From an uncultured Pseudobdellovibrionaceae bacterium (GTDB taxonomy: Bacteria; Bdellovibrionota; Bdellovibrionia; Bdellovibrionales; JAGQZY01), in contig CAYRIE010000001.1 in NCBI GenBank assembly GCA_964424215.1, forward strand, positions 1-50,921: a DNA stretch of 50,921 bases, given 5' to 3'. Under the pieces are notes generated by a model that saw only the letters and a list, made by a program, of their open reading frames with translations, made no database searches and was not told the DNA's origin. Shown piece after piece: positions 8,862 to 24,792 of this stretch (its first letter is position 1; every line of letters begins with the position of its first letter). Both the position numbers and the translations under genes were made by a program.

Positions 8862-9358
8862 TCTCGTACTTAAAGGCCTACCGCCGGTTCGATCCAGCCG
8901 CAAAATCTCTGGCAGAAATTTTGTTTTTGTATCCTGGCGTGAGGGCTATGGCCCTTCACCGAGTGGCTCATTTCCTTTATAAGATCCGGTTGTTTTTTCT
9001 GGCCCGGCTGGTCTCGGAGTTGTCCCGCCTGATCTCGCTGATTGAAATCCACCCCGGTGCAAAAGTTGGTAAGAGATTTGTTATAGATCACGGCGCAGGT
9101 GTTGTGATCGGTGAGACAGCGATTATTGGTGACGACTGCGCTATTTATCACGGCGTGACTCTCGGTGGAGTGCACAGTGAAGAAGGTCGCCGTCACCCCC
9201 GCCTTGAGGACAACGTCCTGATCGGCGCAGGGGCTAAGGTTTTAGGCCCTATCACCATTGGAGCGGGGGCGCGCGTGGGCGCAGGTAGCGTCGTTCTTAA
9301 AGATGTTGAGCCTGGTTCCACTGTGACAGGAGTCCCGGCCCGGCCGGTCATCAGATAG
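8858..9358 (+). CDS. cysE: Serine O-acetyltransferase (short form)
   Basis: Hexapeptide-repeat left-handed beta-helix with a CysE-like core ([41 protein letters not shown] ... [19 protein letters not shown]). ATGA overlap with the upstream gene. Confidence 0.8.
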
Positions 9359-10768: not shown

Positions 10769-11686
10769 ATGCGACAAATAGTCCTTTCCATCGTTGCGAC
10801 ACTTCTGTTCGCAAGTGGGTGCACCATTGACAGGGGTGAGCTGGGAACTGAGAAAAACCCCATCAAATTGTTCTTCGTTCCCTCTGTAGAGAGTCAGACG
10901 ATCAAAGACTCCTCGGGGGAGATTAAAAGACTTTTAGAGCAGTCCACCCCCTACAAGTATGAAATCCGAATTCCTGAAAGTTATGTGGCTGTCGTCGAGG
11001 CTTTCGGCGCCAAACGGGTGGACGTTGCGGCGTTGAACACCTTCGGTTACGTGCTGGCCCGAGAGAAGTTCGCTGCAGAGGCTAAGATCACAGTCATCCG
11101 CCACGGCCACTCCACCTACCGGGCTGCCTTTTATGCAAAAGCCGATGGACCTGTTCAGGCGCTGGCTGACTTGGAAGATCAGCCGATAGCCTACGTGGAC
11201 CCGGCCAGTGCCTCAGGTTACCTGCTCCCCAAAAAAGAGCTCAAAGAGCGCGGCATTGAGCCCTCCAATGAAGTGTTTGCCATGAGTCACGATGCCGTGA
11301 TCTCCATGATCTACCAGGGCAGGGTCCCCGCCGGCGCCGCCTTCTACTCTCCTCCCCAGGATGGCGAGGTCCAAGATGCGCGAAGGTTTGTGCAAACCCA
11401 GTTCCCCGACGTGATGGACAAGATAAAAATCCTCCACCTCACCGCAGACATTCCGAACGAGCCCATAGTGTTCCGCAAAGACATGCCTGAGGCTATGAAG
11501 GAAGAGGTTGTTACAGCGCTTCTTAAGCTGGCGCAAACAGATGATGGCAAGACCGCCCTCTTTCAGATGTTCGGTATCACGGAGCTAAAGAGGTCCACCG
11601 ACGCAGATTACGAAGGTGTCGTAAAGATGCTCCGAGATTTAGGTAAGTCAGCCACCGAGCTCGTGACACCCGAAGAGAAGAAATAA
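10769..11686 (+). CDS. phnD: Phosphonate/phosphite ABC transporter substrate-binding lipoprotein
   Basis: Lipoprotein signal (LLFASGC). PhnD-like periplasmic binding protein, immediately followed by phnC-like and phnE-like genes. Confidence 0.75.
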   Translation: MRQIVLSIVATLLFASGCTIDRGELGTEKNPIKLFFVPSVESQTIKDSSGEIKRLLEQSTPYKYEIRIPESYVAVVEAFGAKRVDVAALNTFGYVLAREKFAAEAKITVIRHGHSTYRAAFYAKADGPVQALADLEDQPIAYVDPASASGYLLPKKELKERGIEPSNEVFAMSHDAVISMIYQGRVPAGAAFYSPPQDGEVQDARRFVQTQFPDVMDKIKILHLTADIPNEPIVFRKDMPEAMKEEVVTALLKLAQTDDGKTALFQMFGITELKRSTDADYEGVVKMLRDLGKSATELVTPEEKK

Positions 11687-11688
11687 TA

Positions 11689-12459
11689 ATGGAAGACAAT
11701 ATCCTTTCGGTTAAGAATCTAGGCAAAGTCTACCCCAACGGAGTAGAGGCGCTTAAAGGCGTTAGCTTCGACGTAAAGAGGGGTGAATTTTTAGTGATTA
11801 TTGGTTTGAGCGGCTCGGGCAAATCGACTTTGCTCAGATGCTTAAACCGGCTCCACGACCCCACTTCTGGGGAGGTCTTTTTTGAGGGCCAGGACGTTGC
11901 CAAGGTGGAAGGTGCTGAAATCAAAGCCGTTCGCAAGAACATGGCAATGATCTTTCAGCAGTTCAATTTGATTGATCGCCACAGTGTTTTAAGCAACGTC
12001 CTGATGGGAGCACTTTCGCGCACATCCACTCTTCGCAGCATGCTCGGACTGTATGGCAAGGAGCAAGTAGCTAAAGCTACCGACTATCTGAAGCTAGTTG
12101 GCATCGCTGAAAAAAAGCACAACCGCGCAGGTCAGCTCTCCGGCGGACAGCAGCAGCGCGTGGCCATCGCCAGGGCCCTTACGCAAGAGCCCAAAGTTTT
12201 GTTAGCAGATGAGCCCGTCGCCAGCTTGGACCCTGCCACTTGTCACGTCGTGATGGACTACCTGAAAAAGGTCAATGAGGAGCTCGGGTTGACCATCGTG
12301 TGCAACCTGCACTTTCTTAGCCTGGTTCGTCAGTACGCTACGCGAGTGATTGCCCTTAAGGGCGGTGAGATCGTTTACGAGGGAAGCCCGGCTGCCATCG
12401 ACGACAGCTGGTTTGAAAAGATCTACGGTGAAGGCGCGCGCCAAGTGCATATCAATTGA
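11689..12459 (+). CDS. phnC: Phosphonate ABC transporter ATP-binding protein
   Basis: Walker A GLSGSGKST, signature LSGGQQQRVAIARAL, Walker B LLADEPVASLD. PhnC-like N-terminus (LSVKNLGKVYPNGVEALKGVSF). Confidence 0.85.
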   Translation: MEDNILSVKNLGKVYPNGVEALKGVSFDVKRGEFLVIIGLSGSGKSTLLRCLNRLHDPTSGEVFFEGQDVAKVEGAEIKAVRKNMAMIFQQFNLIDRHSVLSNVLMGALSRTSTLRSMLGLYGKEQVAKATDYLKLVGIAEKKHNRAGQLSGGQQQRVAIARALTQEPKVLLADEPVASLDPATCHVVMDYLKKVNEELGLTIVCNLHFLSLVRQYATRVIALKGGEIVYEGSPAAIDDSWFEKIYGEGARQVHIN

Positions 12460-12470
12460 GGGGATGAGCG

Positions 12471-13496
12471 GTGTATAAAAAGCTTCAAAGAGTCTTCTTT
12501 GACGGTTTCGTTTTTGCCTATTTTGGCTTTGTGGCCTGGGTGATCTTCTTGCGGCCCAGTGAAGATGTGTTGGTGGCGCTCAAGACTCCGGCCATCACCG
12601 CTCTTGTTCTGTTTGCTATCGGGAGTGTGCTCGCTGCCTTCTTATTAAAGGCACGGGTATCGACCCTGGGGCACATGCTGTTTGCACCTATCCACTTGCG
12701 GCCCTCGGAGCCAGTTCCCTGGTACCGCAGCTTTTGGGTGCTTCAAACGCTGCTCCTCACTCTCATTACGATTTATATCGGAATTCGCGTTGTGGACGTG
12801 AATCTACTCAGGCTTCTGGATCGGGACGCACTGGTGTCCGTGAGCCGTCTTTTTAGAGACATACTCAATCCCGACTGGGGTGTTTTGCCTGAGGCCATCG
12901 TTAAAATCATCGAGACTATATTAATAGCCTTTATGGCTACCTTGATCGCCGTGCCCGTGGCGTTCATCTTGAGTTTTTTCTGCGCCAAAAACATCATGGG
13001 CGGATCTGCTTTTGGGCTTTTCGTTTATGGATTTCTGCGCACTTCCTTTAACGTCATGCGCTCGATTGAACCCATTCTTTGGGCCATCATCTTTGCGGTT
13101 TGGGTGTCCTTTGGCCCCTTTGCAGGTATGCTCGCTCTGATGGTTCACTCCGTGGCCTCACTGGCTAAACAGTTTTCAGAGATTGTGGAGTGTGTGAACG
13201 ATGGCCCGCTGGAAGGGATCCGGGCCACAGGCGCAGGCTTTATGCAGGTGCTTTGGTTTGCAGTGGTACCCCAAGTGGTGCTGCCCTACATTTCTTTCAC
13301 GATCTATCGTTGGGACATCAACGTTCGCATGGCCACCATTTTGGGCTTTGTTGGCGGTGGAGGCATAGGGGAGATGCTTCTCAGATACCAGCGTCTGTCG
13401 AACTGGCCTCAGGTGGGAACCATCATTGTGGTCGTCGCTGTGGTTGTTTGGCTTATGGACAGCTTCTCAGCCTATGTGCGCGAAGCCATTAAGTAG
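12471..13496 (+). CDS. phnE: Phosphonate ABC transporter permease
   Basis: 341 aa multi-TM permease with a PhnE-like EAA region (LEGIRATGAGFMQVLWFAVVPQVVLPY). GTG start. Confidence 0.8.
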   Translation: MYKKLQRVFFDGFVFAYFGFVAWVIFLRPSEDVLVALKTPAITALVLFAIGSVLAAFLLKARVSTLGHMLFAPIHLRPSEPVPWYRSFWVLQTLLLTLITIYIGIRVVDVNLLRLLDRDALVSVSRLFRDILNPDWGVLPEAIVKIIETILIAFMATLIAVPVAFILSFFCAKNIMGGSAFGLFVYGFLRTSFNVMRSIEPILWAIIFAVWVSFGPFAGMLALMVHSVASLAKQFSEIVECVNDGPLEGIRATGAGFMQVLWFAVVPQVVLPYISFTIYRWDINVRMATILGFVGGGGIGEMLLRYQRLSNWPQVGTIIVVVAVVVWLMDSFSAYVREAIK

Positions 13497-13505
13497 CCGC
13501 TTTTA

Positions 13506-13613
13506 TTAGAGTCGCTGTCCCAGCAGCCGGGCGGAGCGTCCGGCTAAAGCGATGACGCTCAAACAGCTAAGAACCCAAACCATCAAAAGTGTGATCGTAC
13601 TGAAATCGTTCAT
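13506..13613 (-). CDS. Candidate 35-aa hydrophobic mini-protein (below the ORF-track size cutoff)
   Basis: The minus strand reads AAAGGAGGTCAGACG-ATG, a strong Shine-Dalgarno with a 7 nt spacer. It is followed by MNDFSTITLLMVWVLSCLSVIALAGRSARLLGQRL and a double stop (TAATAA). There is one predicted TM helix and no family assignment. Confidence 0.35.
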   Translation of the reverse strand: MNDFSTITLLMVWVLSCLSVIALAGRSARLLGQRL

Positions 13614-13682
13614 CGTCTGACCTCCTTTGTATGGAACCGTTTCCTTTGTCTGGCCCTCCGCGCCCGTTCAGCCGTCATGTAT

Positions 13683-13701
13683 ATTTAAAGTTACTTTAAA
13701 T
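13683..13701. promoter_or_regulatory. Perfect 9-1-9 palindrome ATTTAAAGT-T-ACTTTAAAT, a candidate operator in the divergent intergenic region
   Basis: Read directly from the sequence. It lies between the minus-strand mini-ORF (start 13613) and the plus-strand HTH gene (start 13776). Confidence 0.35.
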
Positions 13702-13775
13702 GTCTTTGGAAAACCGGGCCGTGTTGCTAAAACGCAAATCTTGCTCATCTGTGCAACATACGAAGGAAATTCCGA

Positions 13776-14186
13776 ATGACTTTAGAGCAGAAAATTCGAT
13801 TTCTCGTTAAAAGTAGCAACCAGTCCCTTCGTGAAATTGCCGCTGTGGCTGACATAACTCCCTCCTGCTTATCCCGTTATTTGGCTGGCAAAGCTCAGCT
13901 CCGATCCGATTCTTTCCTCAGATTGCTGAGCGCCTTGGGCATCCACCTTGAGAAGGATGTAGACAAGAGGCTCGCTCGGAAGCTGCATGTGCAGAGTCCC
14001 GCGAACGTAGAAGAGGCCTTAGGTTTTAGCTACCGCCTTTTGCCGAGTCTTGAGAAACGGCGGGTTTTAAAGGTGCTGCTTCGCCACCTTTCTAGCGGGA
14101 AAATCAGAGATCAGCACAGTGCTCAGATTGTGGCCAAGGAGTTAATGCACGAGCGAGGAACCCTTGAGCTTCGGCAGGAGGCTTAA
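13776..14186 (+). CDS. Helix-turn-helix protein (resembles the N-terminal half of TIGR02147/DUF4423-type regulators)
   Basis: HTH-like segment SLREIAAVADITPSCLSRYLAGKAQLRSDSFLRLLSALGI. The stop TAA shares its last base with the ATG of the next ORF (TAATG). Confidence 0.55.
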   Translation: MTLEQKIRFLVKSSNQSLREIAAVADITPSCLSRYLAGKAQLRSDSFLRLLSALGIHLEKDVDKRLARKLHVQSPANVEEALGFSYRLLPSLEKRRVLKVLLRHLSSGKIRDQHSAQIVAKELMHERGTLELRQEA

Positions 14187-14707
14187 TGACTGAAATGGAT
14201 GGTCTAACTTTAAAGGCGGGCTACAGGAAAGACTCCATGTCTTTAAGCGATGCCGATCGAATATTTTCTCAGTCGCTGTTCTGTAAGAAAATCTATCAGC
14301 TGATCCAGCTGGACAACTTCCAGCCCTCGGCCGCTTGGATCTCTAAGGCGGTGGGAGTTACCGAAAAAGAGGTGGCCGTCGCCCTGGACTCGCTGCTGAC
14401 CTTGGGGCTTATTGCCCGGACCAGTGCGGGCTATGAAGTGACGGATAAAGTATATGACAAGAAGAACTCTGAAGCCGAAGGCCATCTGGCCTTCACCGAG
14501 GAGCTTTTGAGCGAGCCGCTGAGCAAAGTGTCCGGTTTCGCTAACGGCAGTTTCGCTACCAACCTCGAAGCCATTTTGAAGTTTCACGATGCGATCAGAG
14601 AGGCCATTGACGGCTTGATGGAAGACTCTAAGAGCGCAGCTACAAAAGACTTCGTCTACAGCATGTCATTTTCTTCCTACAAAGACTCAAAGGAGAATCC
14701 GTCGTGA
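14186..14707 (+). CDS. DUF4423-like protein (resembles the C-terminal half of the TIGR02147 family)
   Basis: Winged-helix-like segment (AAWISKAVGVTEKEVAVALDSLLTLGLIARTSAGYEVTDK). It is translationally coupled to both neighbours. The assignment is from memory of the family pattern only. Confidence 0.45.
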   Translation: MTEMDGLTLKAGYRKDSMSLSDADRIFSQSLFCKKIYQLIQLDNFQPSAAWISKAVGVTEKEVAVALDSLLTLGLIARTSAGYEVTDKVYDKKNSEAEGHLAFTEELLSEPLSKVSGFANGSFATNLEAILKFHDAIREAIDGLMEDSKSAATKDFVYSMSFSSYKDSKENPS

Positions 14708-15318
14708 AGTACTTGATGGCCCTGTTTATGCTATTTTTTTCGGTGATAACTCTGGCCCAAATCAACACAGGTGGGCCAGACTTTCCCATATCTTTGACCG
14801 TCATCCAGGAAGGTTTTCCCAGCCTGAACTTTAAAGATCATCAAGTGGCGCCGGTGGTGATTCATGATGTAGTGGTGGATCAGTACAAAGTGGTCTCTAG
14901 CTCCGATCTGAACATCATCATTCAGACACTTAGACCCGAGTCCATGGCGGAGGTCTATGGGATGCTTTCAGATGCCAACCATTTTATTGAGACGGACTTA
15001 GAGCCCATCGATGGACCTCTTGAAGTTTACGGCTATCACTTGCCACCGGAAGACCCAGCGGAAAACATAGACACTCTCACCGCCTATGGCGATTTCGTTT
15101 TGAGAATGTTAAATTTCTATGAAATTTTCAGTCCGCTGATCGGCTACCCCATTGTTGTTCTTGCTCTGCCCAGAGAGGTCCAACTGTCTTGGATCTCTTT
15201 CCTGATAGCTCACAACGTTTTTGGAAGAAACACAGACGAGGTGATCTACGTTCCCGTCAAAAAACCTGAGAATCCTAAAGAGCAGCGAGCCAGCGGCTAC
15301 CCGCCAAAGGCCCAGTAG
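14704..15318 (+). CDS. Hypothetical secreted protein
   Basis: GTG start overlaps the upstream stop (GTGA). Signal peptide MKYLMALFMLFFSVITLAQ. No recognisable domain. Confidence 0.45.
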   Translation: MKYLMALFMLFFSVITLAQINTGGPDFPISLTVIQEGFPSLNFKDHQVAPVVIHDVVVDQYKVVSSSDLNIIIQTLRPESMAEVYGMLSDANHFIETDLEPIDGPLEVYGYHLPPEDPAENIDTLTAYGDFVLRMLNFYEIFSPLIGYPIVVLALPREVQLSWISFLIAHNVFGRNTDEVIYVPVKKPENPKEQRASGYPPKAQ

Positions 15319-15459
15319 ACGGAGTGCAATCTTTTAGGAAATGACCAAGTTCTTATCATCTTTCTGAGCGGCACTGGGTGAAGTGTTTCATTTGGGGCCG
15401 CTGAGGTCTAATTTTCCCCCACCTCCTTTAGTCTGAATCATATTTATCCGATTTTTAGC

Positions 15460-16299
15460 ATGAATCTGAAACTTTTTAAGGGTTTGAGGTACCTCATGCA
15501 AAAACAATTCTATGTGAGTCTAAAAGGTGAGCAGGCGGGACCCTTCAGCGTCGATGAGATAGTTGCCAAAGTAAGTCAGAAGGAGTTATCCGCTACCGAC
15601 TACTGCTATGACGACTCAAGTGAGGACTGGGTTCTCCTAGGGGAGCATCCCACCCTGTCAGATCATGTGAAAAAGGCTTCCGGAGATCTAGTACAGGTCA
15701 CAGAAGAGCTGGTGTCTCACGCATCGCCCCCTGGTGAGATCGAGTGGTTTGTTCTCAAAGGGGAGAACAAGTTTGGACCCTTCACCTTTAATGATCTTAT
15801 TAAAATGCTTCAAGAGAAGTCCATTTTCGAGTTCGACTATGTTTGGCACACAGACCTTACCACTTGGCAAAGAATTGCAGAGGTGGCCGAGTTTCGGCCG
15901 CATAACATTAAAAGGCTGAGAGATTCGGGCAAAGCCACTATTTCAGATATCTTCTTCCGACGCAGACACATGCGCGTTGACTGGGAATCCTCCATTATCA
16001 TCCATGACAATCGCCATTTATGGAGGGGTGAGAGCCTAGAGATCAGCGCAGGTGGCGCGGGAGTGGTGATTCAAAACGCCTCACTGAACCCGGGTCAGTC
16101 GCTTTACCTTCACTTTAAACCAGCAGACGGTGTGCCCGCCTTCAATGCGGTCTGTGAGATCGTCTCTAAGCAGTATGTGAAAGACGCCAAGGGGAGTGAT
16201 TCTCCCGTTAGATACGGTGTGAAATTCACTAAGATCAACACGACCACGCAGCGTGCACTTCAAGAGTACGCCGACAAGAAGGGAAGTGTGGCGGCTTAA
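15460..16299 (+). CDS. Tandem GYF_2 (DUF4339) domains + C-terminal PilZ domain protein (putative c-di-GMP receptor)
   Basis: Two GYF_2-like segments (FYVSLKGEQAGPFSVDEIV ... SEDWVLLGEHPTL, and WFVLKGENKFGPFTFNDLI ... TWQRIAEVAEF). PilZ motifs RRRHMR (15958-15975) and EISAGG (from 16039) are about 21 residues apart. An alternative ATG at 15496 (MQKQFYV) has a GAGG 8 nt upstream. Confidence 0.65.
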   Translation: MNLKLFKGLRYLMQKQFYVSLKGEQAGPFSVDEIVAKVSQKELSATDYCYDDSSEDWVLLGEHPTLSDHVKKASGDLVQVTEELVSHASPPGEIEWFVLKGENKFGPFTFNDLIKMLQEKSIFEFDYVWHTDLTTWQRIAEVAEFRPHNIKRLRDSGKATISDIFFRRRHMRVDWESSIIIHDNRHLWRGESLEISAGGAGVVIQNASLNPGQSLYLHFKPADGVPAFNAVCEIVSKQYVKDAKGSDSPVRYGVKFTKINTTTQRALQEYADKKGSVAA

Positions 16300-16372
16300 G
16301 ACCTGATCAGATTACTAGTTAGTCAGCTGTGCTCGAACCTATGCATGTACCCTCCAGAGCGCAACCAGCAAC

Positions 16373-17395
16373 ATGAAACGGAACGATATGGGTGCATGCA
16401 AATCAGAAAAACATTTTGAGCTATTGAGAGCGGGGCTATGGCTGTCCGTCATTTTCGTTCTGTCCTGCTCTACCGATCAGCAGTTTTCGATCATGCCTTC
16501 TCAGGAAGTTATCGAAACGAACCTAAGTTACAACAACGAAGTGGACGTGCTGTTTGTGGTTGATACTTCAGCCACCATGTCCGCCCATCAGGTGGATCTA
16601 TCAGAGCAGACACCTTACTTTCTGGAGGCTCTGATTGACACCAAACTGGACTTCCGGATCGCCGTGACCACTATGGACATGCGGCCCGCTGGAGAGCGCG
16701 GCCAGTTTGTCGGCTTCCCCAAAGTTCTGACAGCTCACACCCCTCAGCTTTACCGACTCCTTGAGGATCGAATCGCCCTTATGGGTGAGGGCGGTGGTTC
16801 TGTTGAGCGGGGGCTTGAGGCTATGCAAACGGCACTTGAGCGAGAAGCCGGCCTGGCTAGCAGTCAGTTTTTCAGGCCCGATGCACTCTTAGTCCTAGTG
16901 TTTCTGACCAACGAAGATGACACCAGTCCGGCCCTCGATTACGTGGCTCTGCTGGATGGCTTGAAGCCGCCCCTACCATCGGGGGAGCGCAGCTGGGTCA
17001 GTCACTTTATTGGTGTTCTTCCTGGTGGTTACAACTGCGCGGCCTTTGAGGGGCAGTATGTGCCCGGCTACAAGTATCTTCCACTTTCCCAAGCTTCAGG
17101 CGGGGTGATGGAAAACATATGCACGGCCGATCTAGGTGTGGCGGTGGGGTCCATCCGTAGCCGCGTCATTCAATATGTCACCGATATCCGTTTGGACCGG
17201 GTTCCTGATCTTAGCACCGTGCGGGTGAAGGTTAACGGTCAGGCTGTGCCCAAAAGCAGTGTCAATGGCTGGTCCTATGTCAGCGAGTTCAATTTGATTC
17301 GCTTTCACGGCTCGGCCATACCCAAGGCGGACGCACTTGTACAAATAGATTTTGATCCCATTGGAATTAAAGAAAGTCTTAAGAAGAGTTTTTAA
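16373..17395 (+). CDS. von Willebrand factor A-like lipoprotein
   Basis: Signal peptide with a lipobox-like VLSC. MIDAS-like DTSAT (D at 16562) in the context VDVLFVVDTSATMS. A later VLVFLTNEDD strand is typical of vWA folds. Confidence 0.55.
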   Translation: MKRNDMGACKSEKHFELLRAGLWLSVIFVLSCSTDQQFSIMPSQEVIETNLSYNNEVDVLFVVDTSATMSAHQVDLSEQTPYFLEALIDTKLDFRIAVTTMDMRPAGERGQFVGFPKVLTAHTPQLYRLLEDRIALMGEGGGSVERGLEAMQTALEREAGLASSQFFRPDALLVLVFLTNEDDTSPALDYVALLDGLKPPLPSGERSWVSHFIGVLPGGYNCAAFEGQYVPGYKYLPLSQASGGVMENICTADLGVAVGSIRSRVIQYVTDIRLDRVPDLSTVRVKVNGQAVPKSSVNGWSYVSEFNLIRFHGSAIPKADALVQIDFDPIGIKESLKKSF

Positions 17396-17417
17396 GGAAG
17401 GAATTTAGGGGGACACC

Positions 17418-18101
17418 ATGTTGCAGATGATTGTTGACTCAGGAGTGTTTGGTTACGTGATCGTAGGAATCGCGTTTGTTGCCGTGCTGCTCATAGCTGA
17501 GCGCAGTTACGTTCTTTTTAAGACGTACTCCATCCATGCGGACAGCTTTATGAAGAAGATTCAGGAGTTGATCGGTAAAGATCAGATTTCTGAAGCTGTT
17601 ACCTTGTGCGCCAAGGAAGACGAAAAACCCCTTCCCCACGTGATCAAAGCTGTCTTGGAGCGATCCGACCGTGATGATGAGTCCATCTATCAGGGTATGG
17701 ATATCGCCATGGCTGAGGTCATCCCCAAGCTTGGGAAAAGACTCAACTACCTTTCGCTGTTTGCCAACGTGTCCACTCTGTTCGGACTTTTAGGTACGAT
17801 CCAGGGTTTGATCATGTCCTTTGCGGCCGTGGCCCAAGCAGATGCTTCCCAAAAGAACGAGCTGCTGGCCCAGGGTATTTCCATTGCGATGTACACGACG
17901 GCCATGGGTCTGATCGTGGCGATCCCCTCTCTTGTGGTCTACACCTTTTTGCATAACAAACAGTCGCGCATGCTCGAGGAGATTATCGAGCACGCAGCTA
18001 AAGTTGTCGACACTCTAACAACTCGGCACTATGTGGCCCCGCAAAGCAGTGCAGCAGGTGGTGCTCCTCAAAAGGCCCCTCCTGTCCCACGGGCATCTTA
18101 A
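17418..18101 (+). CDS. MotA/TolQ/ExbB-family proton channel (AglR-like)
   Basis: Three TM helices and the family core (LFGLLGTIQGLIMSFAAV ... GISIAMYTTAMGLIVAIPSLVVYTFL). Confidence 0.85.
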   Translation: MLQMIVDSGVFGYVIVGIAFVAVLLIAERSYVLFKTYSIHADSFMKKIQELIGKDQISEAVTLCAKEDEKPLPHVIKAVLERSDRDDESIYQGMDIAMAEVIPKLGKRLNYLSLFANVSTLFGLLGTIQGLIMSFAAVAQADASQKNELLAQGISIAMYTTAMGLIVAIPSLVVYTFLHNKQSRMLEEIIEHAAKVVDTLTTRHYVAPQSSAAGGAPQKAPPVPRAS

Positions 18102-18127: not shown

Positions 18128-18688
18128 GTGAGAAAGTCTAGGATTCAGCGCGAAGTGAAAGGGGAGGTTCAGAACGATCTGGATCTCACCCCGACGTTGT
18201 CCCTCATGATTGTGCTTATTCCGATGCTTTTGCTGACTGCTGCTTTCATCAAGATCAAAGTGATCGAGGCACCTCTTCCTCAGTTTATCGCCGAGGCTAT
18301 CGCCGAGAACGCTTCAGGAGAGGAGCTTATCACTCTGGATGTAGATGTGCTCCAAGACCGCAGTGTGCGTATTAACCTGAGCGTGAACGGGAAAGTCTCC
18401 AAAAACACCGTCGGGCCTCAGCGCAGTGAGGGAGCGGCTACTGTGAACCTGGATCAGCTCCGTTCAGAGCTAATCAGGATCAAGCGCGCCCATCCCACGG
18501 TCTTTTCGATGTCCGTTAACCCTGCACCAGCGGTGACCTATGACGAAATCGTAAAGGTGCTCGATGTAGCTCGAACTACGGGATCTAAAAGCGAAACTTT
18601 TGACATTATCAACAGAGAAACTGGCGAGAAAAACACCACGGAACTTATGTTTCCGGAGGTCATTTTTGGCAATTTGGTAGAGGGCTGA
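18128..18688 (+). CDS. ExbD/TolR-family protein, paralogue 1 (TM Asp replaced by Ser)
   Basis: ExbD-like N-terminus DLDLTPTLSLMIVLIPMLLL plus a periplasmic domain. The position aligned by eye with TolR D23 / ExbD D25 is Ser (codon 18200-18202). GTG start. Confidence 0.75.
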   Translation: MRKSRIQREVKGEVQNDLDLTPTLSLMIVLIPMLLLTAAFIKIKVIEAPLPQFIAEAIAENASGEELITLDVDVLQDRSVRINLSVNGKVSKNTVGPQRSEGAATVNLDQLRSELIRIKRAHPTVFSMSVNPAPAVTYDEIVKVLDVARTTGSKSETFDIINRETGEKNTTELMFPEVIFGNLVEG

Positions 18689-18689
18689 A

Positions 18690-19205
18690 ATGGGACGTTT
18701 ATCCGAAACGATGAAACGCTTTAATAAACAGGACAGCAGCGTGGGGGTGCAGCTCACCTCTATGGTGGACGTATTGACCATCCTGCTTGTTTTCCTGCTT
18801 AAAAGCTTCTCCTCAAGTGCAGTGGTTCCGCCTATGGGAGATGGAGTGCGTCTGCCCGATTCTACCGCGATGGTGGAGCCCATTGAAGCCCTCAAGTTGG
18901 TCGTCTCTCCCCTAGGGGTTTTCGTCAACGATGAGATGGTTATCACGTTTCAGGACTCCAAGATTTTGGAGACGGACCTCTCCGGTCAGGATCCAGATTT
19001 GATAGTCAAGCTTCATGAGAAGATGGAATCTGAAGCTAAGAGAGCTGAAGAGATCGCCAAGGTGAATCCAACCTTAGATTTTAAGGGCGAGGTTCTGATG
19101 CAGGCAGATAGAAGCCTCTCTTATGAGGTCTTAAGAAAGATTATGTACACATCCTCGTTAGCTGGTTACGGCGATTTGAAATTGGCTACGATGTTGGCGG
19201 AGTGA
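18690..19205 (+). CDS. ExbD/TolR-family protein, paralogue 2 (TM Asp retained)
   Basis: VQLTSMVDVLTILLVFLL with the conserved Asp (codon 18768-18770). It starts 1 nt after the previous stop. Confidence 0.8.
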   Translation: MGRLSETMKRFNKQDSSVGVQLTSMVDVLTILLVFLLKSFSSSAVVPPMGDGVRLPDSTAMVEPIEALKLVVSPLGVFVNDEMVITFQDSKILETDLSGQDPDLIVKLHEKMESEAKRAEEIAKVNPTLDFKGEVLMQADRSLSYEVLRKIMYTSSLAGYGDLKLATMLAE

Positions 19206-22132
19206 GAATGCACAGCAGAGTTTGGACCCTCATTTTAGTACTATTTCTCGGGGGAGCCGTCACGGCTCAGGCGCCGCTGGAATCCATCCGGCTCACTCCC
19301 GGAGATGAGATGAGCAACGAGAAAAAGTCGCTGCAAGCCGAACTGCTGATTAGAAAATCTGAGGATCAAGCGCTCGCTCAGATTAAAGATTTGCTCAGAA
19401 AGCATCGCGGAGAGGCTCTTGAAGTGGAACTTTTGTTCCGTTTAGCGGAGCTGCACATGCGCCGGGCTAAGACCGAAAGATTTTTTGAAATCCATCGGCA
19501 CAGCGATACAGTGACCAAGCTCGCACCTCAACATGTTAAAAAGGCCTCTCAGAAGCGAGAAATCCAGCAGGCGATCAGCACCTATGACAACATCCGCCGC
19601 CGGTTCCCTAAGTACCAACAAATGGACTTAGTGCTTTTCAACAGCGGCTTTGCTCGGCAGCTGATCAACGACGACCGCTCTGCTGAAAAGCTCTACTGGG
19701 AGATTATCGCACAGCACCCCAACTCTTACCTTGTGCCCGATGCCCACCTAGCTATCGGCGAGATCAATTTCGAGCGGCGTGGCTATCAAAAGGCGCTGGA
19801 GCATTTTCTAAAGATCGAGGACTATCCCGCATCCAGAGCTTACTCCTACGGGATGTATAAAGCCTCCTGGGCCTACTACAACCTTCAGAGGTCCGTAGAT
19901 GCTATGAAAAAGCTTGAGCAAGTGGTCACCTACGGTCAGTACGTCAAAGACAACAATCTCGATAGCCGGTTGGATTTGCGTGCAGAGGCTCTTAAGGATT
20001 TAGCGCTTTTCTATAGCGACGTTATGAAGGCTAAAGGCGCTGTGGCCTATTTTATGAAGTGGTCCAGGGAGCTGAGCGCCTGGCCTCAGGTTCACATGCT
20101 CACAGAAATCTACAAGCGTCACGGTAAGCACGAGGACATTGAAGTGGTCCTGCTGGACGTTATCAATATGATTCCCGATAAGAGTGCCGTGATTGCAGCC
20201 TATGATGAGCTGCTCATGACCCATGAGCGCGCCCTCAACAGAGACAAGGCTGTGGAGCGCCTCAACCTTTTTGTCAGATACTGTAAGGGACTGGCCCCGC
20301 GCGGGAAAATGCCCGCCGAAGAAGCTGTGGAGCTTTTCGACAGCTGTAAAGGCAAGGTTGTGGAGAGCTCCCACCACCTTGCATCTAAATGGCATGGGCT
20401 ATGGATTAAAAACAACAAGCATGAACTCTTCCAAAAGAGCGCCTCGCTGGCCTATTTGGCTTACTTAGAGTTTGCGGATCCGGTGACCGAGGAAATGGCT
20501 CAGGTGCGCTTTAACTACGGTGAGCTCCTCTTTAACGGCGAAGAGTTTCGTAAGGCCTCAGGCAGTTACGCCCTTGTAAGAACCGCTAAGCCCTCTCAGC
20601 AGCTGCTTCACGACGGGAACTACGCTGCCATTGTTAGCCTTGAGCGCGCCACAGGCGATACTTGGAACGATAAGGACGAGCAGCACTTTAAAAAGCTCGT
20701 GACCTCCTACCTTGAGGATTCACCTAAGGGAAAGTACAGCCTGGATCTGCGGTTTAAAGTGGCCTTTATCGCCTATCAAAAAGGTCGCTACGATGAAGCT
20801 ATGCCTCAACTGAAAGAGCTGGGCTGGGCGCATAAGGGGACTGAGAACGGAGAGCGTGCGCAGGATCTTTATCTGGATATTCTGAACATCAAAAAAAGGT
20901 ACGGAGATTTGAAGCAAGCCGCTGCGGAAGTAGGGGAGATGACCCGATCTTCAGAGCGCAAGGCCAAGGTCAAAAACATCTATCAAGAAGCTTACTTCGC
21001 CGAAGTGCAGACCTCAGTAGAAGCGGGTGCTGGCATCCAGGCAGCCCAAAGCTTTTTGGCCTTCTCTAAAGAGAACCCTAAATCTCCTTTGGCCTCTAAA
21101 GCCTGGTGGAATGCCACGCAAATTCTCTTTGACGCTGAAGAGTACAAAGAGGGATCCCAGAAGTGTCTGGAGTTTGCCGCAGCCTACCCTAAGGACGATC
21201 AGGCCAAAGAGTGCCTCGTCCAGGCAGCTTTGCATTTTGAAAAAATGGGTCATCTTGATCAAGCCGCACACGCACTGGAGATGGGTGCAAAGCTGAGCCA
21301 GGGAGCTGAGGCGCAAAAGACCTTAGAGCTTGCGGCTGACTTTTGGGCTCTCGGCGGAGCTGATAGCAAGGCCGATGGTCTTTACGATAAACTCTTTTCA
21401 TCATCTGCGGCGGCCGATCAGGACAGAGTTTTAACCAAATGGCACCGTTTGGCTCAGAGCAGAGGCATGAAGGCTCGGGAAAGGCTTTTGCGTGAGAGAG
21501 TTTTGGCCCTACCCAAGTCGGCCTACAAGTTTGAGCTCCTTGCCGAACAGGTCGAAAGTAGCTTTTCCAAGGGCGACCTCCCTGGTGCCTTTAGGGCGGC
21601 TAGCGGAATTGTGGGCAGCTCAGCAGCGCCAAGTCACCTCAAAGCCAAGGCCAGGTACTTTCAAGCACGAGTGCTCCAGGACGAGTTTGAAAAGCAGAGT
21701 GTGAAGGCGCGGCCCGAAAGGTTAGCTCTGGTTTTAGGCATCAAAACGGAAAAGCTGGAAAAGGCTCAGCAGGCTTTTCAGGCCACAATTTCCTACCGCG
21801 ACTCCGAGTATTCTTTAAAAGCCCTTGAAGGCCTAGCTCAGATCTACCTGACCTATGCCCAAGACATGCGAACGATCAGTGCGCCCCAGGAGCTGAGCGC
21901 TCAAGAGCAGGCTCAGTTCCGCGCGGAACTTGAGAACTTGGCTATCCCCATGGAGGAAAAGGGCATCGAAGGTGTAGAGCAGGCACTCCGTTTTGCCAAA
22001 GACGTTAAACTTCGCGACGATTCGGCCCACAGGATTCAAACTTGGCTGGACCAACTGAACCACCAACCAGCCGGATTAGATGTAAGATCTTTCCAGCCTC
22101 AGCCCTATCTACCTCGGGGAGGTGATGCATGA
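19202..22132 (+). CDS. Large secreted TPR-repeat protein (GltD/AgmU-like by position and architecture)
   Basis: 976 aa. Signal peptide (VLFLGGAVTAQA) followed by TPR-like repeats throughout. The start overlaps the ExbD stop. Same position as gltD after the aglRQS-type genes. Confidence 0.6.
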   Translation: MRMHSRVWTLILVLFLGGAVTAQAPLESIRLTPGDEMSNEKKSLQAELLIRKSEDQALAQIKDLLRKHRGEALEVELLFRLAELHMRRAKTERFFEIHRHSDTVTKLAPQHVKKASQKREIQQAISTYDNIRRRFPKYQQMDLVLFNSGFARQLINDDRSAEKLYWEIIAQHPNSYLVPDAHLAIGEINFERRGYQKALEHFLKIEDYPASRAYSYGMYKASWAYYNLQRSVDAMKKLEQVVTYGQYVKDNNLDSRLDLRAEALKDLALFYSDVMKAKGAVAYFMKWSRELSAWPQVHMLTEIYKRHGKHEDIEVVLLDVINMIPDKSAVIAAYDELLMTHERALNRDKAVERLNLFVRYCKGLAPRGKMPAEEAVELFDSCKGKVVESSHHLASKWHGLWIKNNKHELFQKSASLAYLAYLEFADPVTEEMAQVRFNYGELLFNGEEFRKASGSYALVRTAKPSQQLLHDGNYAAIVSLERATGDTWNDKDEQHFKKLVTSYLEDSPKGKYSLDLRFKVAFIAYQKGRYDEAMPQLKELGWAHKGTENGERAQDLYLDILNIKKRYGDLKQAAAEVGEMTRSSERKAKVKNIYQEAYFAEVQTSVEAGAGIQAAQSFLAFSKENPKSPLASKAWWNATQILFDAEEYKEGSQKCLEFAAAYPKDDQAKECLVQAALHFEKMGHLDQAAHALEMGAKLSQGAEAQKTLELAADFWALGGADSKADGLYDKLFSSSAAADQDRVLTKWHRLAQSRGMKARERLLRERVLALPKSAYKFELLAEQVESSFSKGDLPGAFRAASGIVGSSAAPSHLKAKARYFQARVLQDEFEKQSVKARPERLALVLGIKTEKLEKAQQAFQATISYRDSEYSLKALEGLAQIYLTYAQDMRTISAPQELSAQEQAQFRAELENLAIPMEEKGIEGVEQALRFAKDVKLRDDSAHRIQTWLDQLNHQPAGLDVRSFQPQPYLPRGGDA

Positions 22133-23037
22133 ACCTACTCCGTGTTTGGCTTATCAGCTTGGCTCTTGCAGGATGTGCCTCAACGGGTCCTAAAGCGAAG
22201 TCCGGCTCGGCCAAGAGCGTGCCCTTCGTTCAGGGGGTTCACGGCACTGAAGCTCACTCTGTTTCGGGTACGTGCACAGTGAACCGAGAAGCTTGGCTTT
22301 CCATGACGTGGAAGCGTCTTAACGATGTAGCCAACAAGTGTGTTCAGGAGCAGAAGTGGTCGACAGTGAAAGATCTGGGTCACTTTCTTGCTGAAAAGTT
22401 CTATCACAGCCCCTGGGGACTTTATTATCTGTCCTTATACTACGATCAGGCCAAGGACGCCGATAGATCCCTATGGTTCATTGAGGCCGCTTTGGCCAAA
22501 ACAGCTGTGGACCTGGGTCTTCTGAACTACCAAAAAGCTAAAGTTCTTCTGAGTGTGGGTGATTTGCCTGGAGCCTACCAGTTTTTTGAAAAAGCAGTTC
22601 GGCTAGACGACAACTTGGTGGACGCCCACATTTACTTGGGACAGCAAGCTTATCTGGACCGAGACTTGGGGCGCGCCGAAAAGCATTTGGCCAAAGCCTT
22701 CGGAAAAAACAAACTCCAGGAGGTCGTGCACTTTCAGATGCTCGCCCAGTCCTACGAAGCGCGGAAAAAGTGGGCCGAGTCAGTGGACGTTCTGGAGCGA
22801 GGGTTAAGGGCTCATAAGGACAGCTTGGAGCTCAAACTCCAGCGGGCCTCTGTGCTCGAGCAGGGGTTGAAGGATCTCCGAGCCGCACTGAAAGCCTACG
22901 AGGATGTTCTCAAGCTTCAGGCGAAAAGATCCCAAAATTCATCGCCTGTGAAAGATAAGATCGATCAAATTAAAAAGTTACTCGAGCAGAACGACCAAAA
23001 CGAACGAGCACCAGCGACTCGAGAGGAAAGGGCCTAA
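22129..23037 (+). CDS. TPR-repeat lipoprotein (GltE-like by position)
   Basis: ATGA overlap with the upstream gene. Lipobox LALAGC. TPR-like repeats. Confidence 0.55.
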   Translation: MNLLRVWLISLALAGCASTGPKAKSGSAKSVPFVQGVHGTEAHSVSGTCTVNREAWLSMTWKRLNDVANKCVQEQKWSTVKDLGHFLAEKFYHSPWGLYYLSLYYDQAKDADRSLWFIEAALAKTAVDLGLLNYQKAKVLLSVGDLPGAYQFFEKAVRLDDNLVDAHIYLGQQAYLDRDLGRAEKHLAKAFGKNKLQEVVHFQMLAQSYEARKKWAESVDVLERGLRAHKDSLELKLQRASVLEQGLKDLRAALKAYEDVLKLQAKRSQNSSPVKDKIDQIKKLLEQNDQNERAPATREERA

Positions 23038-23039
23038 GG

Positions 23040-23279
23040 ATGATTAAATTCATTGTGACTTTGGCTTTGAGCTTAGCTTGCGCCACCGTATTCGCCCAAT
23101 CGGGGCGTAGCAAAAAGGTGCAAGAGGTGAATTTTGACGGGGTCGACATCGACGGGAAGGTGAAGAACCCCGACGGGGCCTACCTCCTGCAAAAAAAGGG
23201 AGTGGACTTTCTGCCCCTTTATAAAGTGAAGACCGAATTTGATAACAACATCAAAGAGTCCATCGAGTACTTGAGGTGA
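23040..23279 (+). CDS. Small secreted protein, 79 aa (position-equivalent to gltF)
   Basis: Signal peptide MIKFIVTLALSLACATVFAQ. It lies 2 nt after the previous stop and 4 nt before the next start. The assignment rests on gene order only. Confidence 0.4.
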   Translation: MIKFIVTLALSLACATVFAQSGRSKKVQEVNFDGVDIDGKVKNPDGAYLLQKKGVDFLPLYKVKTEFDNNIKESIEYLR

Positions 23280-23283
23280 CCAA

Positions 23284-24792
23284 ATGAGTCGGCGTGAGTT
23301 GCTGGTCGAGCATTATTACAACAAGAGATTTCTGAAGTCTCGGCGGTTTAAGTCCAATCAGAGCCAAGTCATCTTTGGCTCTTCGCCCTCGGCGGACATT
23401 CGGCTGATGGGTCAGGACGTTAATGGCATTCACGCTCTGGTGGAGCATGTGGACGACACATGGCTCCTGATGGACCTTGCCAGTCCCACGGGCACCCGTG
23501 TGGACGGTGAGAACATCATCGAAAAAACCATTCAGGAGCCAACGTCCGTTAGAATCGGAAGCCATGAGATCCGCCTGATTCCCATTCACATTGAATCCAC
23601 GCTCTTTAAGCCGGAGGAGACTCCGGCTGCCCAGGCAGGGGAGACTCTGCACCAAGTGGTCGTTCGGCGAAACGGTGAGATTTTGCGAACGGCCGTTCTT
23701 AAGCCCCAGGAGAGCTTCATCTGGGGCGCTCAGGACATGATTTTTGCGCCTCCCACCACAAGAGAGTGGGTCGTAAGTAGGTTCGATGGACTCAGTGTGC
23801 AGCAGCGCCTAACCTCAGCTCCCCAGGTGGAGCTTGAAAAGGTCAAACTCCAACTCACTGAAAGCGAAAAGATCTCCTTGGTCGGTGTGGGGACCTTTGC
23901 ACTGCTATGCTTTCTTTTGTTGGTACTAAAGCCAGCTACGGAGGCAAAGCCCCTTCAGGAGCAGTCCAACGTCTATGCCAAGATGGTGCTAGATCCTGAG
24001 GTGTTGAAAGAAAAACGAAACGACGCTCAACAAAACCGTAGAAAACTGGTTCAACAGAAAGTAGCAAAAACCGCTCAGCAGAAGGCTGGACCCACCAGCA
24101 AAATACCAAGTAAAGCCGCACCCTCATCGGGTGCGCCCACAGCAAGAGTGCAGGATGGACCCAAGGTTCTGACCAACATCCGCACCGCCCAGCTCGGACA
24201 GATCATCGGGCGCATCAGCCAAAGAGCTGACAGTTCACGAGGGCTCGCATCCGCCCAAGGGCCCAACGCACCCACCTCATCTAGCCGGCTCCGAGGCAGC
24301 GGCCTCCCTTCAGTGGAGGGCAGCGGGGTGAAGCGTGGAAATGGAACAGCAGCCTCCAGTCCGTATCAAATTGCGGCAGTGGGGACCTCCGGTAGAGGAG
24401 GGGGAGTTTCAGATTTTAAAGGGGTAGGCAGTCTCTCCTCAGGCTCTGTGGGAACGGCTGACGTGGGAATTATGGAGGATGAGGCTGAGGTGGATGGCGG
24501 CTTAGACCGCGAAGTTATCGCCAACTATATTAAAAGTCAGCTCGGACAAATCCGATACTGCTATGAACGACAACTGAGTGCGAATCCTGATCTTTATGGC
24601 AAGGTTCAAATTCAGTTTACGATTGCTGCCCATGGGGGTGTGTCAGCACACTCCATTGGACAGACAACATTAAAAGACGCCACGGTAGAGGGATGTATTT
24701 TGCGGCGTGTGGCTCAGTGGAAGTTTCCGGAACCGAAAGGCGGGACGCAGGTCAAAGTCACCTACCCCTTCCTGTTCAAGAGTACTAACTGA
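23284..24792 (+). CDS. FHA domain - TM - AgmX/PglI-type TonB-C-like domain protein (GltG-like)
   Basis: N-terminal FHA-like segment (VIFGSSPSADIRLMGQDVNGIHALVEH ... WLLMDLASPTGTRVDGENI). TM helix (ISLVGVGTFALLCFLLLVL) and a low-complexity linker. C-terminal domain: GGLDREVIANYIKSQLGQIRYCYERQL ... GKVQIQFTI ... VEGCILRRVAQWKFPEP ... VTYPFLFK. Confidence 0.65.
   Translation: MSRRELLVEHYYNKRFLKSRRFKSNQSQVIFGSSPSADIRLMGQDVNGIHALVEHVDDTWLLMDLASPTGTRVDGENIIEKTIQEPTSVRIGSHEIRLIPIHIESTLFKPEETPAAQAGETLHQVVVRRNGEILRTAVLKPQESFIWGAQDMIFAPPTTREWVVSRFDGLSVQQRLTSAPQVELEKVKLQLTESEKISLVGVGTFALLCFLLLVLKPATEAKPLQEQSNVYAKMVLDPEVLKEKRNDAQQNRRKLVQQKVAKTAQQKAGPTSKIPSKAAPSSGAPTARVQDGPKVLTNIRTAQLGQIIGRISQRADSSRGLASAQGPNAPTSSSRLRGSGLPSVEGSGVKRGNGTAASSPYQIAAVGTSGRGGGVSDFKGVGSLSSGSVGTADVGIMEDEAEVDGGLDREVIANYIKSQLGQIRYCYERQLSANPDLYGKVQIQFTIAAHGGVSAHSIGQTTLKDATVEGCILRRVAQWKFPEPKGGTQVKVTYPFLFKSTN

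Follow-up and report, generated by a model that had tools for sequence, protein, structure and literature searches.

The 50,921-nucleotide contig CAYRIE010000001.1 of an uncultured Pseudobdellovibrionaceae bacterium (assembly GCA_964424215.1), analyzed here over its whole length and referred to as the window, carries at 15460-16299 of the plus strand a gene for a protein with two GYF_2 domains followed by a PilZ domain. This GYF-GYF-PilZ gene is followed by a gene for a lipoprotein with a MIDAS (metal ion-dependent adhesion site)-like motif and, further downstream, by a set of stator and Glt-like gliding genes. The evidence so far, which comes from sequence, fold and genomic neighborhood, makes its product a good candidate for the missing signal receptor of the gliding motor.

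The interval 15460-16299 is a mechanically delimited open reading frame of 279 aa. The true start is probably the ATG at 15496 (M13) rather than the one at 15460, which would give a coding sequence of 15496..16299 (plus strand) and a protein of 267 aa. The N-termini of homologues align with M13, and direct reading of the sequence places a Shine-Dalgarno-like GAGG (15484..15487, plus strand) 6 nt upstream of 15496. The ATG at 15460 was rejected because the homologues start at M13, because no comparable Shine-Dalgarno-like element precedes it, and because the -10 element of a sigma-28-like promoter motif ends at ~15452, which is only ~8 nt ahead of this codon. Residue numbers below refer to the 267-aa protein unless the 279-aa frame is named.

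Domain architecture and predicted fold

Profile searches bore out the order of domains proposed in an earlier note on this DNA, two GYF_2 modules and then PilZ, with every domain above its Pfam threshold. Across the whole protein, GYF_2 was matched in two stretches (E 6.7e-21), and the two GYF halves, scanned separately, scored 35.4 and 46.5 bits, each above the threshold of 25.8. These correspond to GYF_2 domain 1 (PF14237; 15511..15657, plus strand, E 9.3e-9) and GYF_2 domain 2 (15745..15894, plus strand, E 3.1e-12), which share 25% identity with each other (E 2e-7). The PilZ domain (PF07238; 15958..16272, plus strand) was matched at E 2.8e-13 over residues 167-271 of the 279-aa frame, with 50.5 bits (gathering score 22.5) and coverage of profile positions 2-100 of 102.

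A structural model was generated using AlphaFold2 with 148 homologues. It returned the fold that had been anticipated, two GYF units and a six-stranded PilZ barrel, at a mean predicted local distance difference test (pLDDT) score of 85.7 and a predicted template modeling (pTM) score of 0.48, a value that fits three beads along a flexible string. Both GYF units show the beta-beta-alpha-beta-beta-alpha order, a four-stranded sheet with two helices (pLDDT ~84-95); in the first, the strands span residues 4-9, 12-18, 36-39 and 44-47 and the helices residues 19-27 and 55-61. The PilZ domain is composed of six strands (residues 161-170, 175-183, 187-192, 202-207, 216-227 and 238-247; barrel pLDDT ~85-96) and a C-terminal helix.

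A Foldseek search of the model against the PDB gave 33 matches at E<=1e-3, every one of them a PilZ structure. The top ones are proteins that bind c-di-GMP, with MotI/DgrA (5vx6, E 4.7e-7) first, followed by YcgR, Alg44, MapZ and BcsA. A single-sequence phmmer search of the PilZ domain against PDB sequences found no match, and the solved structures were reached by the family profile and the fold search only.

The first GYF domain is less conserved than the second and is missing from variants of ~180-200 aa. The second contains seven invariant residues (W84, L87, G94, P95, Q106, W117 and W124). The two are separated by a linker predicted to be disordered (residues 64-77; 15685..15726, plus strand; pLDDT <50), which varies in length among homologues and is Pro/Lys-rich in most of them, with the consensus KPxxPP. 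A few homologues, such as P0142 (485 aa) and P0179 (552 aa), have inter-GYF linkers of 200-300 residues, and that of P0179 is a tandem repeat with a unit of ~35 residues (QNLQERVPAAQGVEKRNDNLSDVRVREVQVHHQEA).

Conservation of the ligand-site motifs

Both motifs reported for the PilZ domain lie where they had been placed. RRRHMR, at 15958..15975 (plus strand), corresponds to residues 167-172 of the 279-aa frame, and EISAGG, at 16039..16056 (plus strand), begins at residue 194 of that frame, with 21 residues between the two. In an alignment of 148 homologues (~35-89% identity), the first motif has the form RRxxxR, with R156 and R160 present in 148/148 sequences, R157 in 146/148 and R155 in 143/148. 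The second has the form ExSxGG, the family version of (D/N)xSxxG; the Glu and the Ser are each found in 147/148 sequences, the first Gly in 144/148 and the second in 148/148, and A-G follows in the consensus. Both motifs are still present in representatives that are ~30% identical.

Profile alignments to PilZ proteins of solved structure that bind c-di-GMP place the family's Glu, at the first position of (D/N)xSxxG, opposite an Asn in MotI and YpfA and an Asp in PP4397. The Glu is a conservative yet systematic substitution, fixed as a trait of the family. The RRxxxR segment was modeled with a pLDDT of ~68, lower than that of the barrel, which matches expectation for a loop that becomes ordered upon ligand binding. 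Because the RxxxR arginines, the Ser and the Gly-Gly pair are nearly invariant across the 148 homologues, the nucleotide site looks functional.

Size and taxonomic distribution of the family

A word-indexed search of 90%-identity clusters returned at least 700 matches, with GYF_2 and PilZ in all of those listed. An exhaustive search of 50%-identity representatives returned 712 clusters at E<=1e-3, of which 113 reached E<=1e-30. Members are mostly 250-300 aa long, and a shorter form of ~180-200 aa consists of the second GYF domain and PilZ alone. The named source organisms are Bdellovibrionaceae, Pseudobdellovibrionaceae, Bdellovibrionia, Bdellovibrio sp. or Oligoflexia; the sole named exception to Bdellovibrionota is a partial protein from a metagenome-assembled genome labeled Flavobacteriales. 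The family is therefore large, and its distribution, by named sources, is narrow.

Promoter and transcription unit

Upstream of the gene, a sigma-28 (FliA)-like promoter motif, TTTAGTC-N14-CCGAT, was identified at 15427..15452 (plus strand) by consensus match alone. It is the single match to T[AT][AT]AGT-N12-17-CCGA[TA] in the 50.9-kb window when both strands are scanned. The motif recurs among relatives: at 44 of 83 loci (53%) the 150 nt ahead of the gene contain it, against 8 of 3482 control windows (0.23%), the 83 being all loci with enough upstream sequence, Glt-adjacent or otherwise. The hexamers most enriched upstream of the gene across loci, CCGATA and TTAAGT/TAAGTC, jointly form the sigma-28/FliA pattern.

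A scan of 13400-17500 for sigma-70 promoters gave no promoter-like site. A terminator scan of the same region gave sites at or below chance, none of them between the GYF-GYF-PilZ gene and the lipoprotein gene. In relatives, the downstream gene overlaps by 4 bp or follows after a gap of 17 bp. In Rfam searches, no RNA family, riboswitches included, passed its gathering threshold anywhere in the window, and none matched 15250-16450 at E<=1. FliA is known to control a large attack-phase regulon in Bdellovibrio (Lowry et al. 2022 citing Karunker et al., PMC9140294). The promoter motif, the lack of a terminator-like site, the tight gene spacing in relatives and this regulon together suggest that the GYF-GYF-PilZ gene heads an attack-phase transcription unit that is probably FliA-dependent.

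Gliding genes downstream of the GYF-GYF-PilZ gene

The gene immediately downstream (16373..17395, plus strand) encodes a MIDAS/vWA-like lipoprotein with a lipobox (VLSC) and a DTSAT motif of the MIDAS-like DxSxT type. It matches the NCBIfam model for the MIDAS family adhesin of Bdellovibrio (E 5.1e-15) and that for CglD (E 1.4e-6), in both cases falling far short of the equivalog cut-off, and Pfam VWA_2 at only E 0.11.

The stator genes come next. The distance of about 1.1 kb given for them earlier is accurate, since 1,119 nt separate the stop of the GYF-GYF-PilZ gene from the start of the ExbB-like gene. This gene (17418..18101, plus strand) encodes an AglR-like stator channel of the MotA/ExbB/TolQ family (Pfam MotA_ExbB, E 3.8e-26) and is followed by two ExbD/TolR-type, AglQ/AglS-like genes (18128-18688 and 18690-19205, plus strand; Pfam ExbD, E 1.5e-10 and 3.1e-12). 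The AglR-like protein ends in a Pro-rich C-terminal tail (APQKAPPVPRAS; 18063..18098, plus strand). The tails of its counterparts at 24 loci are variable, with mostly a short Pro-rich run and then a terminal K-[VIM]-[AS] (for example PPKAPPRAA, LPPPTNGKVA and VPPPPAKVS). This end of the protein is predicted to be cytoplasmic, and the tail looks like a conserved C-terminal short linear motif.

Two TPR genes occupy the GltD and GltE positions (19202-22132 and 22129-23037, plus strand); they have TPR matches and a YbgF-like match (E 2.4e-21) and are syntenic in relatives. A small gene (23040..23279, plus strand) encodes a secreted protein of 79 aa with a signal peptide and no family match, GltF-like by position only; in L010, L011, L013 and L014, the space between the second TPR gene and the GltG-like gene likewise holds a gene for a protein of 78-83 aa. 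The GltG-like gene (23284..24792, plus strand) encodes an FHA domain, a transmembrane segment and an AgmX/PglI C-terminal domain, with matches to NCBIfam gliding_GltG (NF033760, E 4.7e-58, short of its equivalog cut-off), myxo_SS_tail (E 2e-33) and Pfam FHA (E 2.1e-7). An outer-membrane beta-barrel (24826-25638, plus strand; TIGR04565, E 1.7e-20), a GltC-like TPR protein (25635-28064, plus strand; gliding_GltC, E 1.9e-30) and a secreted coiled-coil protein (28081-28716, plus strand) complete the block.

Beyond 28716 there are two minus-strand genes for MsbA-like ABC proteins, followed by the nuo operon. At the other end, a phosphonate-type ABC transporter (phnD/C/E-like, 10769-13496) is encoded upstream of the GYF-GYF-PilZ gene. 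The gliding set of Bdellovibrio has been described as comprising the AglRQS, GltD/E/F/G, GltA/B and GltC types and lacking GltH, I, J and K (Luciano et al., PMC3169522). The set in the window is the same; a GltG-like gene is present, and no GltJ-like gene was found in the window.

Genomic neighborhood in relatives

A total of 95 loci was collected. The window proteins were mapped onto the first 94 by tblastn, and L095 was examined separately. The neighborhood table comprises the 55 informative loci, each with at least 4 kb of downstream sequence. Glt-like genes abut the GYF-GYF-PilZ gene in 31 of the 55, with the stator present in 19 and absent in 12. The lipoprotein gene alone is found downstream in 20, and neither it nor Glt-like genes in 4. 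The most constant neighbor is the MIDAS lipoprotein gene, directly downstream in 36 loci; in a further 15 this gene is lost and a stator or TPR gene still adjoins.

At least five arrangements occur among the Glt-adjacent loci (PZ, GYF-GYF-PilZ gene; B, ExbB-type; D, ExbD-type). They are PZ-vWA-B-D-D-TPR, as in the window; PZ-B-D-D-TPR; PZ-vWA-TPR; PZ-TPR, with a 4 bp overlap between the gene and the large first TPR gene in L014; and B-D-D-PZ-TPR, in L011, L017, L020, L027 and L029. The gene is usually found at the head of the gliding-motility genes and, in rearranged loci, also within the cluster. Its contact with gliding genes survives these rearrangements, which argues for a functional linkage to them.

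The expectation of the earlier note that the gene would be syntenic with Agl/Glt-like clusters is borne out in part, since the adjacency recurs in several gene orders at 31 loci and the block is absent from 20. The stator does not hold up as the conserved link: its ExbB and ExbD genes are missing from 12 of the 31 Glt-adjacent loci, and where the whole block is missing the pairing with the lipoprotein gene is kept. The gene is linked to the set of gliding and adhesin genes and not to the stator in particular, and the linkage holds in only about half of the sampled lineages.

At one locus, L009 (11883-19261), from a Bdellovibrio-like assembly, the GYF-PilZ and lipoprotein pair is followed by genes for an ABC-2 transporter, a prepilin peptidase and pilMNOPQ in place of the gliding genes. 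A link to type IV pili, suggested by this arrangement, was rejected because no other locus shares it.

Comparison with characterized proteins

The closest parallels for the PilZ half are YcgR of Escherichia coli and MotI/DgrA of Bacillus subtilis, nucleotide-gated brake or clutch proteins that act on stators of the MotA family, the superfamily to which the AglR/ExbB-like gene belongs. Both are soluble PilZ proteins, as the window protein appears to be, and they provide its best fold matches (5vx6, 5y6g and 5y6f). They differ in having their own YcgR-N/PilZN domain where the window protein has two GYF_2 domains, in serving the flagellar motor rather than an Agl/Glt gliding machine, and in having D/N rather than Glu in the second motif. 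The family profile matches YcgR and MotI sequences marginally (E 0.04-0.6), and membership in their family was rejected because the N-terminal half has no PilZN/YcgR match; the window protein may nevertheless act in a comparable manner.

For the GYF half, the parallel is GltJ (AgmX) of Myxococcus xanthus, which has a GYF_2 domain of the bacterial type on the cytoplasmic side of the Agl/Glt machine. Among solved structures, this domain (7z3c) is the nearest relative of the second GYF domain, by family profile (E 1.2e-4) and by Foldseek (E 6e-3, root-mean-square deviation 2.2 A over 56 columns). The GltJ domain uses its sheet surface to bind a proline-rich sequence of AglZ and takes part in linking the Myxococcus machine with its platform in the cytoplasm (PMC11135422). 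GltJ is embedded in the membrane as an integral protein and has a zinc ribbon, a transmembrane segment and a TonB-C-like periplasmic domain, whereas the window protein has two GYF domains and a PilZ domain and is predicted to be soluble; no transmembrane segment was seen in its AlphaFold2 model and no zinc-ribbon family in the profile searches. The GltJ switch is driven by MglA-GTP, in contrast to the nucleotide second messenger proposed below for the window protein. Membership in the GltJ family (NCBIfam NF033761) was rejected, as the match reached 16.5 bits against a cut-off of 450 and covered the GYF region only.

Other PilZ proteins offer looser comparisons. In M. xanthus, PixA is a PilZ-receiver protein, PixB a tandem PilZ-acetyltransferase protein, and PlpA a PilZ domain alone. 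To our knowledge, none of the three has GYF domains or is encoded at the head of an agl/glt cluster. They are PilZ regulators of motility in another phylum with Agl/Glt gliding (PMC8844925). MapZ (PA4608) resembles the window protein in combining a PilZ barrel with a C-terminal helix. It acts as a nucleotide-gated protein-protein adaptor, the role proposed below for the window protein, and its complexes with CheR1 (5xly and 5y4r) are among the top fold matches. It differs in lacking extra docking domains and in having a chemotaxis methyltransferase as its target.

Bd1482 and the gliding messenger of Bdellovibrio

The idea of a PilZ protein as signal receiver at this position is not new. One of the four gliding operons of Bdellovibrio bacteriovorus has a PilZ gene, Bd1482, at its 5' end, and this gene has already been flagged as a tentative receiver of the signal of DgcA (Bd0367) (Hobley et al. 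2012, PMC3271064). In the literature reached, Bd1482 occurred in a single paper and no study of its function was found, and no relevant paper on the combination of GYF and PilZ was found in the literature reached. In strain HD100, Bd1483 is a lipobox MIDAS protein of the gliding cluster (PMC11003981, PMC2277423), and Bd1481 is aglR (PMC2277423).

A PilZ gene thus heads an Agl/Glt-type operon there as well, within the same trio of MIDAS lipoprotein, PilZ and AglR genes as in the window. By locus numbers, Bd1483 apparently lies on the other side of the PilZ gene. No B. bacteriovorus protein was found among the matches listed in the homologue searches or in the cluster look-ups of 30 diverse representatives. 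The window gene is a candidate orthologue of Bd1482, backed by gene order in the literature. Among the collected loci, L003 has a second, diverged vWA-lipoprotein-like gene (~8814-9257, minus strand) just upstream of its GYF-PilZ gene, which recalls the Bd1483/Bd1482 order of HD100.

The identity of the messenger has shifted since that proposal. Gliding of B. bacteriovorus requires the 3',3'-cyclic GMP-AMP (3',3'-cGAMP) made by Bd0367 and not the cyclic di-GMP (c-di-GMP) made by the same enzyme (Lowry et al. 2022, PMC9140294). The S214D variant of Bd0367 still makes c-di-GMP, makes no cGAMP and does not support gliding. The reported downstream effect of cGAMP loss is a lower level of bd1480 and bd3099 mRNA, and no receptor was proposed; bd1480 (called aglQ) and the vWA gene bd3099 are both surface-induced in a Bd0367-dependent manner (PMC9140294). 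The architecture and motifs behind the suggestion of a c-di-GMP input to the motor are real and strongly conserved; in view of the cGAMP requirement, c-di-GMP itself is no longer the obvious messenger.

Proposed function

The explanation that best fits these observations, and that we judge about equally likely to be right or wrong, is that the GYF-GYF-PilZ protein is a soluble cytoplasmic adaptor for the gliding machine, gated by a cyclic dinucleotide. It is favored because the PilZ fold is closest to MotI and YcgR, because the second GYF domain is closest to that of GltJ, and because the clusters contain no GltJ. The C-terminal PilZ domain would sense the nucleotide, c-di-GMP by default and possibly 3',3'-cGAMP, and the two N-terminal GYF_2 domains would dock on proline-rich segments of partner proteins, as the GYF domain of GltJ does on AglZ. 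The gene would be transcribed from the sigma-28/FliA-type promoter, probably jointly with the MIDAS-type lipoprotein gene; in this genome, the AglRQS/GltD-E-F-G-A/B-C-type gliding genes would probably be part of the same transcript.

Binding of the nucleotide would order the RRxxxR linker between the second GYF domain and the PilZ barrel, and the ordered linker would alter which partners are available to the GYF domains or to the barrel surface. The level of the second messenger could in this way be coupled, on the cytoplasmic side, to how the gliding machine assembles or how active it is. As Bdellovibrio-type clusters are without GltJ, the protein would supply the GYF module in trans. A speculative candidate for the GYF ligand is the C-terminus of the AglR-like protein, with its Pro-rich run and K-[VIM]-[AS] end at 24 loci. 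A second candidate is the Pro/Lys-rich linker between the GYF domains of many homologues, which could act as an internal competitor for them.

The combination of domains in this protein is new, in the otherwise well-known class of PilZ adaptors, and its gene lies at a position where a PilZ gene was flagged already in 2012. Both the gliding of Bdellovibrio and its exit from dead prey depend on the cGAMP of Bd0367. The gene supplies a concrete candidate receptor of 267 aa that should be easily purified and turns the 2012 suggestion for Bd1482 into a testable form, with a docking domain of the type known to join the gliding machine of Myxococcus to a platform in the cytoplasm. If the protein were only a routine c-di-GMP-binding PilZ protein without a gliding phenotype, the finding would be an ordinary one.

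Alternative explanations

Several observations weigh against an adaptor for the gliding machine. Loci in which the stator and Glt block is absent fall largely into one clade of a neighbor-joining tree, and they continue past the lipoprotein gene into the same two minus-strand ABC genes and/or the nuoB/nuoCD orthologues found in the window at the far end of the block; the 4 further loci lack even the lipoprotein gene. L095, whose protein is a 31%-identical member of the family, has the GYF-GYF-PilZ gene, an orthologue of the lipoprotein gene (39% identity, E 1e-76) and then nuo. Since the loci with the lipoprotein gene alone and L095 keep both flanks without the block, the segment 17418-28716 (~11.3 kb) behaves as a cassette that is present or absent within a conserved phn-to-nuo backbone, as seen when the window is compared with L021, L024-L031, L040, L058, L062, L069 and L095. 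In the neighbor-joining ordering of the PilZ proteins, block-present and block-absent loci separate for the most part into two big clades; as the loci are related by descent, few separate events stand behind the counts. The adjacency may partly reflect inherited gene order in this backbone and not functional linkage. Moreover, the deepest conserved unit is the pair of GYF-GYF-PilZ and MIDAS lipoprotein genes, not a pairing with the stator, and this most constant partner is a secreted lipoprotein, out of reach of a cytoplasmic protein. Two further points concern the ligand, namely the Glu in place of the canonical Asp/Asn of the PilZ motif and the finding that the gliding messenger of B. bacteriovorus is cGAMP, with a reported effect on transcript levels (PMC9140294). 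Genomes with the lipoprotein gene alone at this site may carry Agl/Glt clusters elsewhere, as B. bacteriovorus has four of them.

The neighborhood points lead to the strongest competing explanation, in which the protein is a receptor that serves the MIDAS lipoprotein or a general attack-phase program (surface adhesion, or the export or placement of adhesins), and its adjacency to the motor is historical, the block having been inserted into or lost from the backbone. The pairing with the lipoprotein gene at 36 of 55 loci, its persistence in L095 and the 4 bp overlap between the two genes in L009 are as this account would have it, as is the presence or absence of the block between the lipoprotein gene and the ABC and nuo genes. 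The upstream HAD and phnDCE genes are equally syntenic and have no plausible functional link, and the sigma-28-like motif, having been counted over all 83 loci, may belong to the gene and not to the cluster. However, contact with a stator or TPR gene is kept at the 15 loci where the lipoprotein gene has been lost, and the gene moves within the gliding cluster in the five loci with the order B-D-D-PZ-TPR. MIDAS/vWA adhesins are, in addition, themselves gliding components, as indicated by the weak CglD match and by the position of Bd1483 beside Bd1482 and aglR, and the vWA gene bd3099 shares its surface induction and its dependence on Bd0367 with bd1480 (PMC9140294). We regard this explanation as improbable, though it deserves serious weight.

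A second alternative concerns the ligand. The PilZ site may read cGAMP, so that the protein would be the missing effector downstream of the Hypr-GGDEF enzyme Bd0367 in the control of Bdellovibrio gliding. In its fullest form, the family would stand between Bd0367 and gliding, the Glu-variant PilZ domain would read 3',3'-cGAMP with or without c-di-GMP, and the GYF domains would dock on a proline-rich motif in the machine or in its platform, such as the AglR tail, and so replace the GltJ switch in trans. The requirement of gliding for cGAMP, for which no receptor has been identified (PMC9140294), makes such an effector attractive; no Rfam riboswitch was found in the window to take this role, and a non-canonical Glu is fixed at the D/N position that contacts the base. 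Against this, the remainder of the site (RRxxxR, Ser and Gly-Gly) is canonical for c-di-GMP. A carboxylate at the D/N position suits the N1/N2 edge of guanine and not adenine. A cGAMP-preferring PilZ domain is neither familiar to us nor was one found in the literature reached, and the reported effect of cGAMP on bd1480 and bd3099 mRNA is not obviously explained by a cytoplasmic adaptor. Both the ligand assignment and its fuller form are, in our judgment, distinctly unlikely; if true, they would make this PilZ protein the first to respond to cGAMP, and the motor the first of the gliding focal-adhesion kind under direct gating by a cyclic dinucleotide.

It is highly doubtful that the PilZ domain no longer binds nucleotides and that the protein is a constitutive scaffold, as the Glu in place of the canonical D/N and the example of PlpA, which regulates M. 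xanthus motility without binding c-di-GMP in vitro, might suggest (PMC8844925), because the RxxxR arginines, the Ser and the Gly-Gly are kept in 147-148 of 148 homologues over ~35-89% identity, the pattern of a working site, whereas the M. xanthus PilZ proteins without conserved c-di-GMP-binding motifs are listed as such in the same source.

Genes between phnE and the GYF-GYF-PilZ gene

Between phnE and the GYF-GYF-PilZ gene, the window contains three plus-strand genes (13776-15318) that encode an HTH_3 protein (136 aa), a DUF4423 protein (173 aa) and a protein of unknown family (204 aa). This trio is absent from all 94 mapped loci and may be a small mobile or regulatory insertion.

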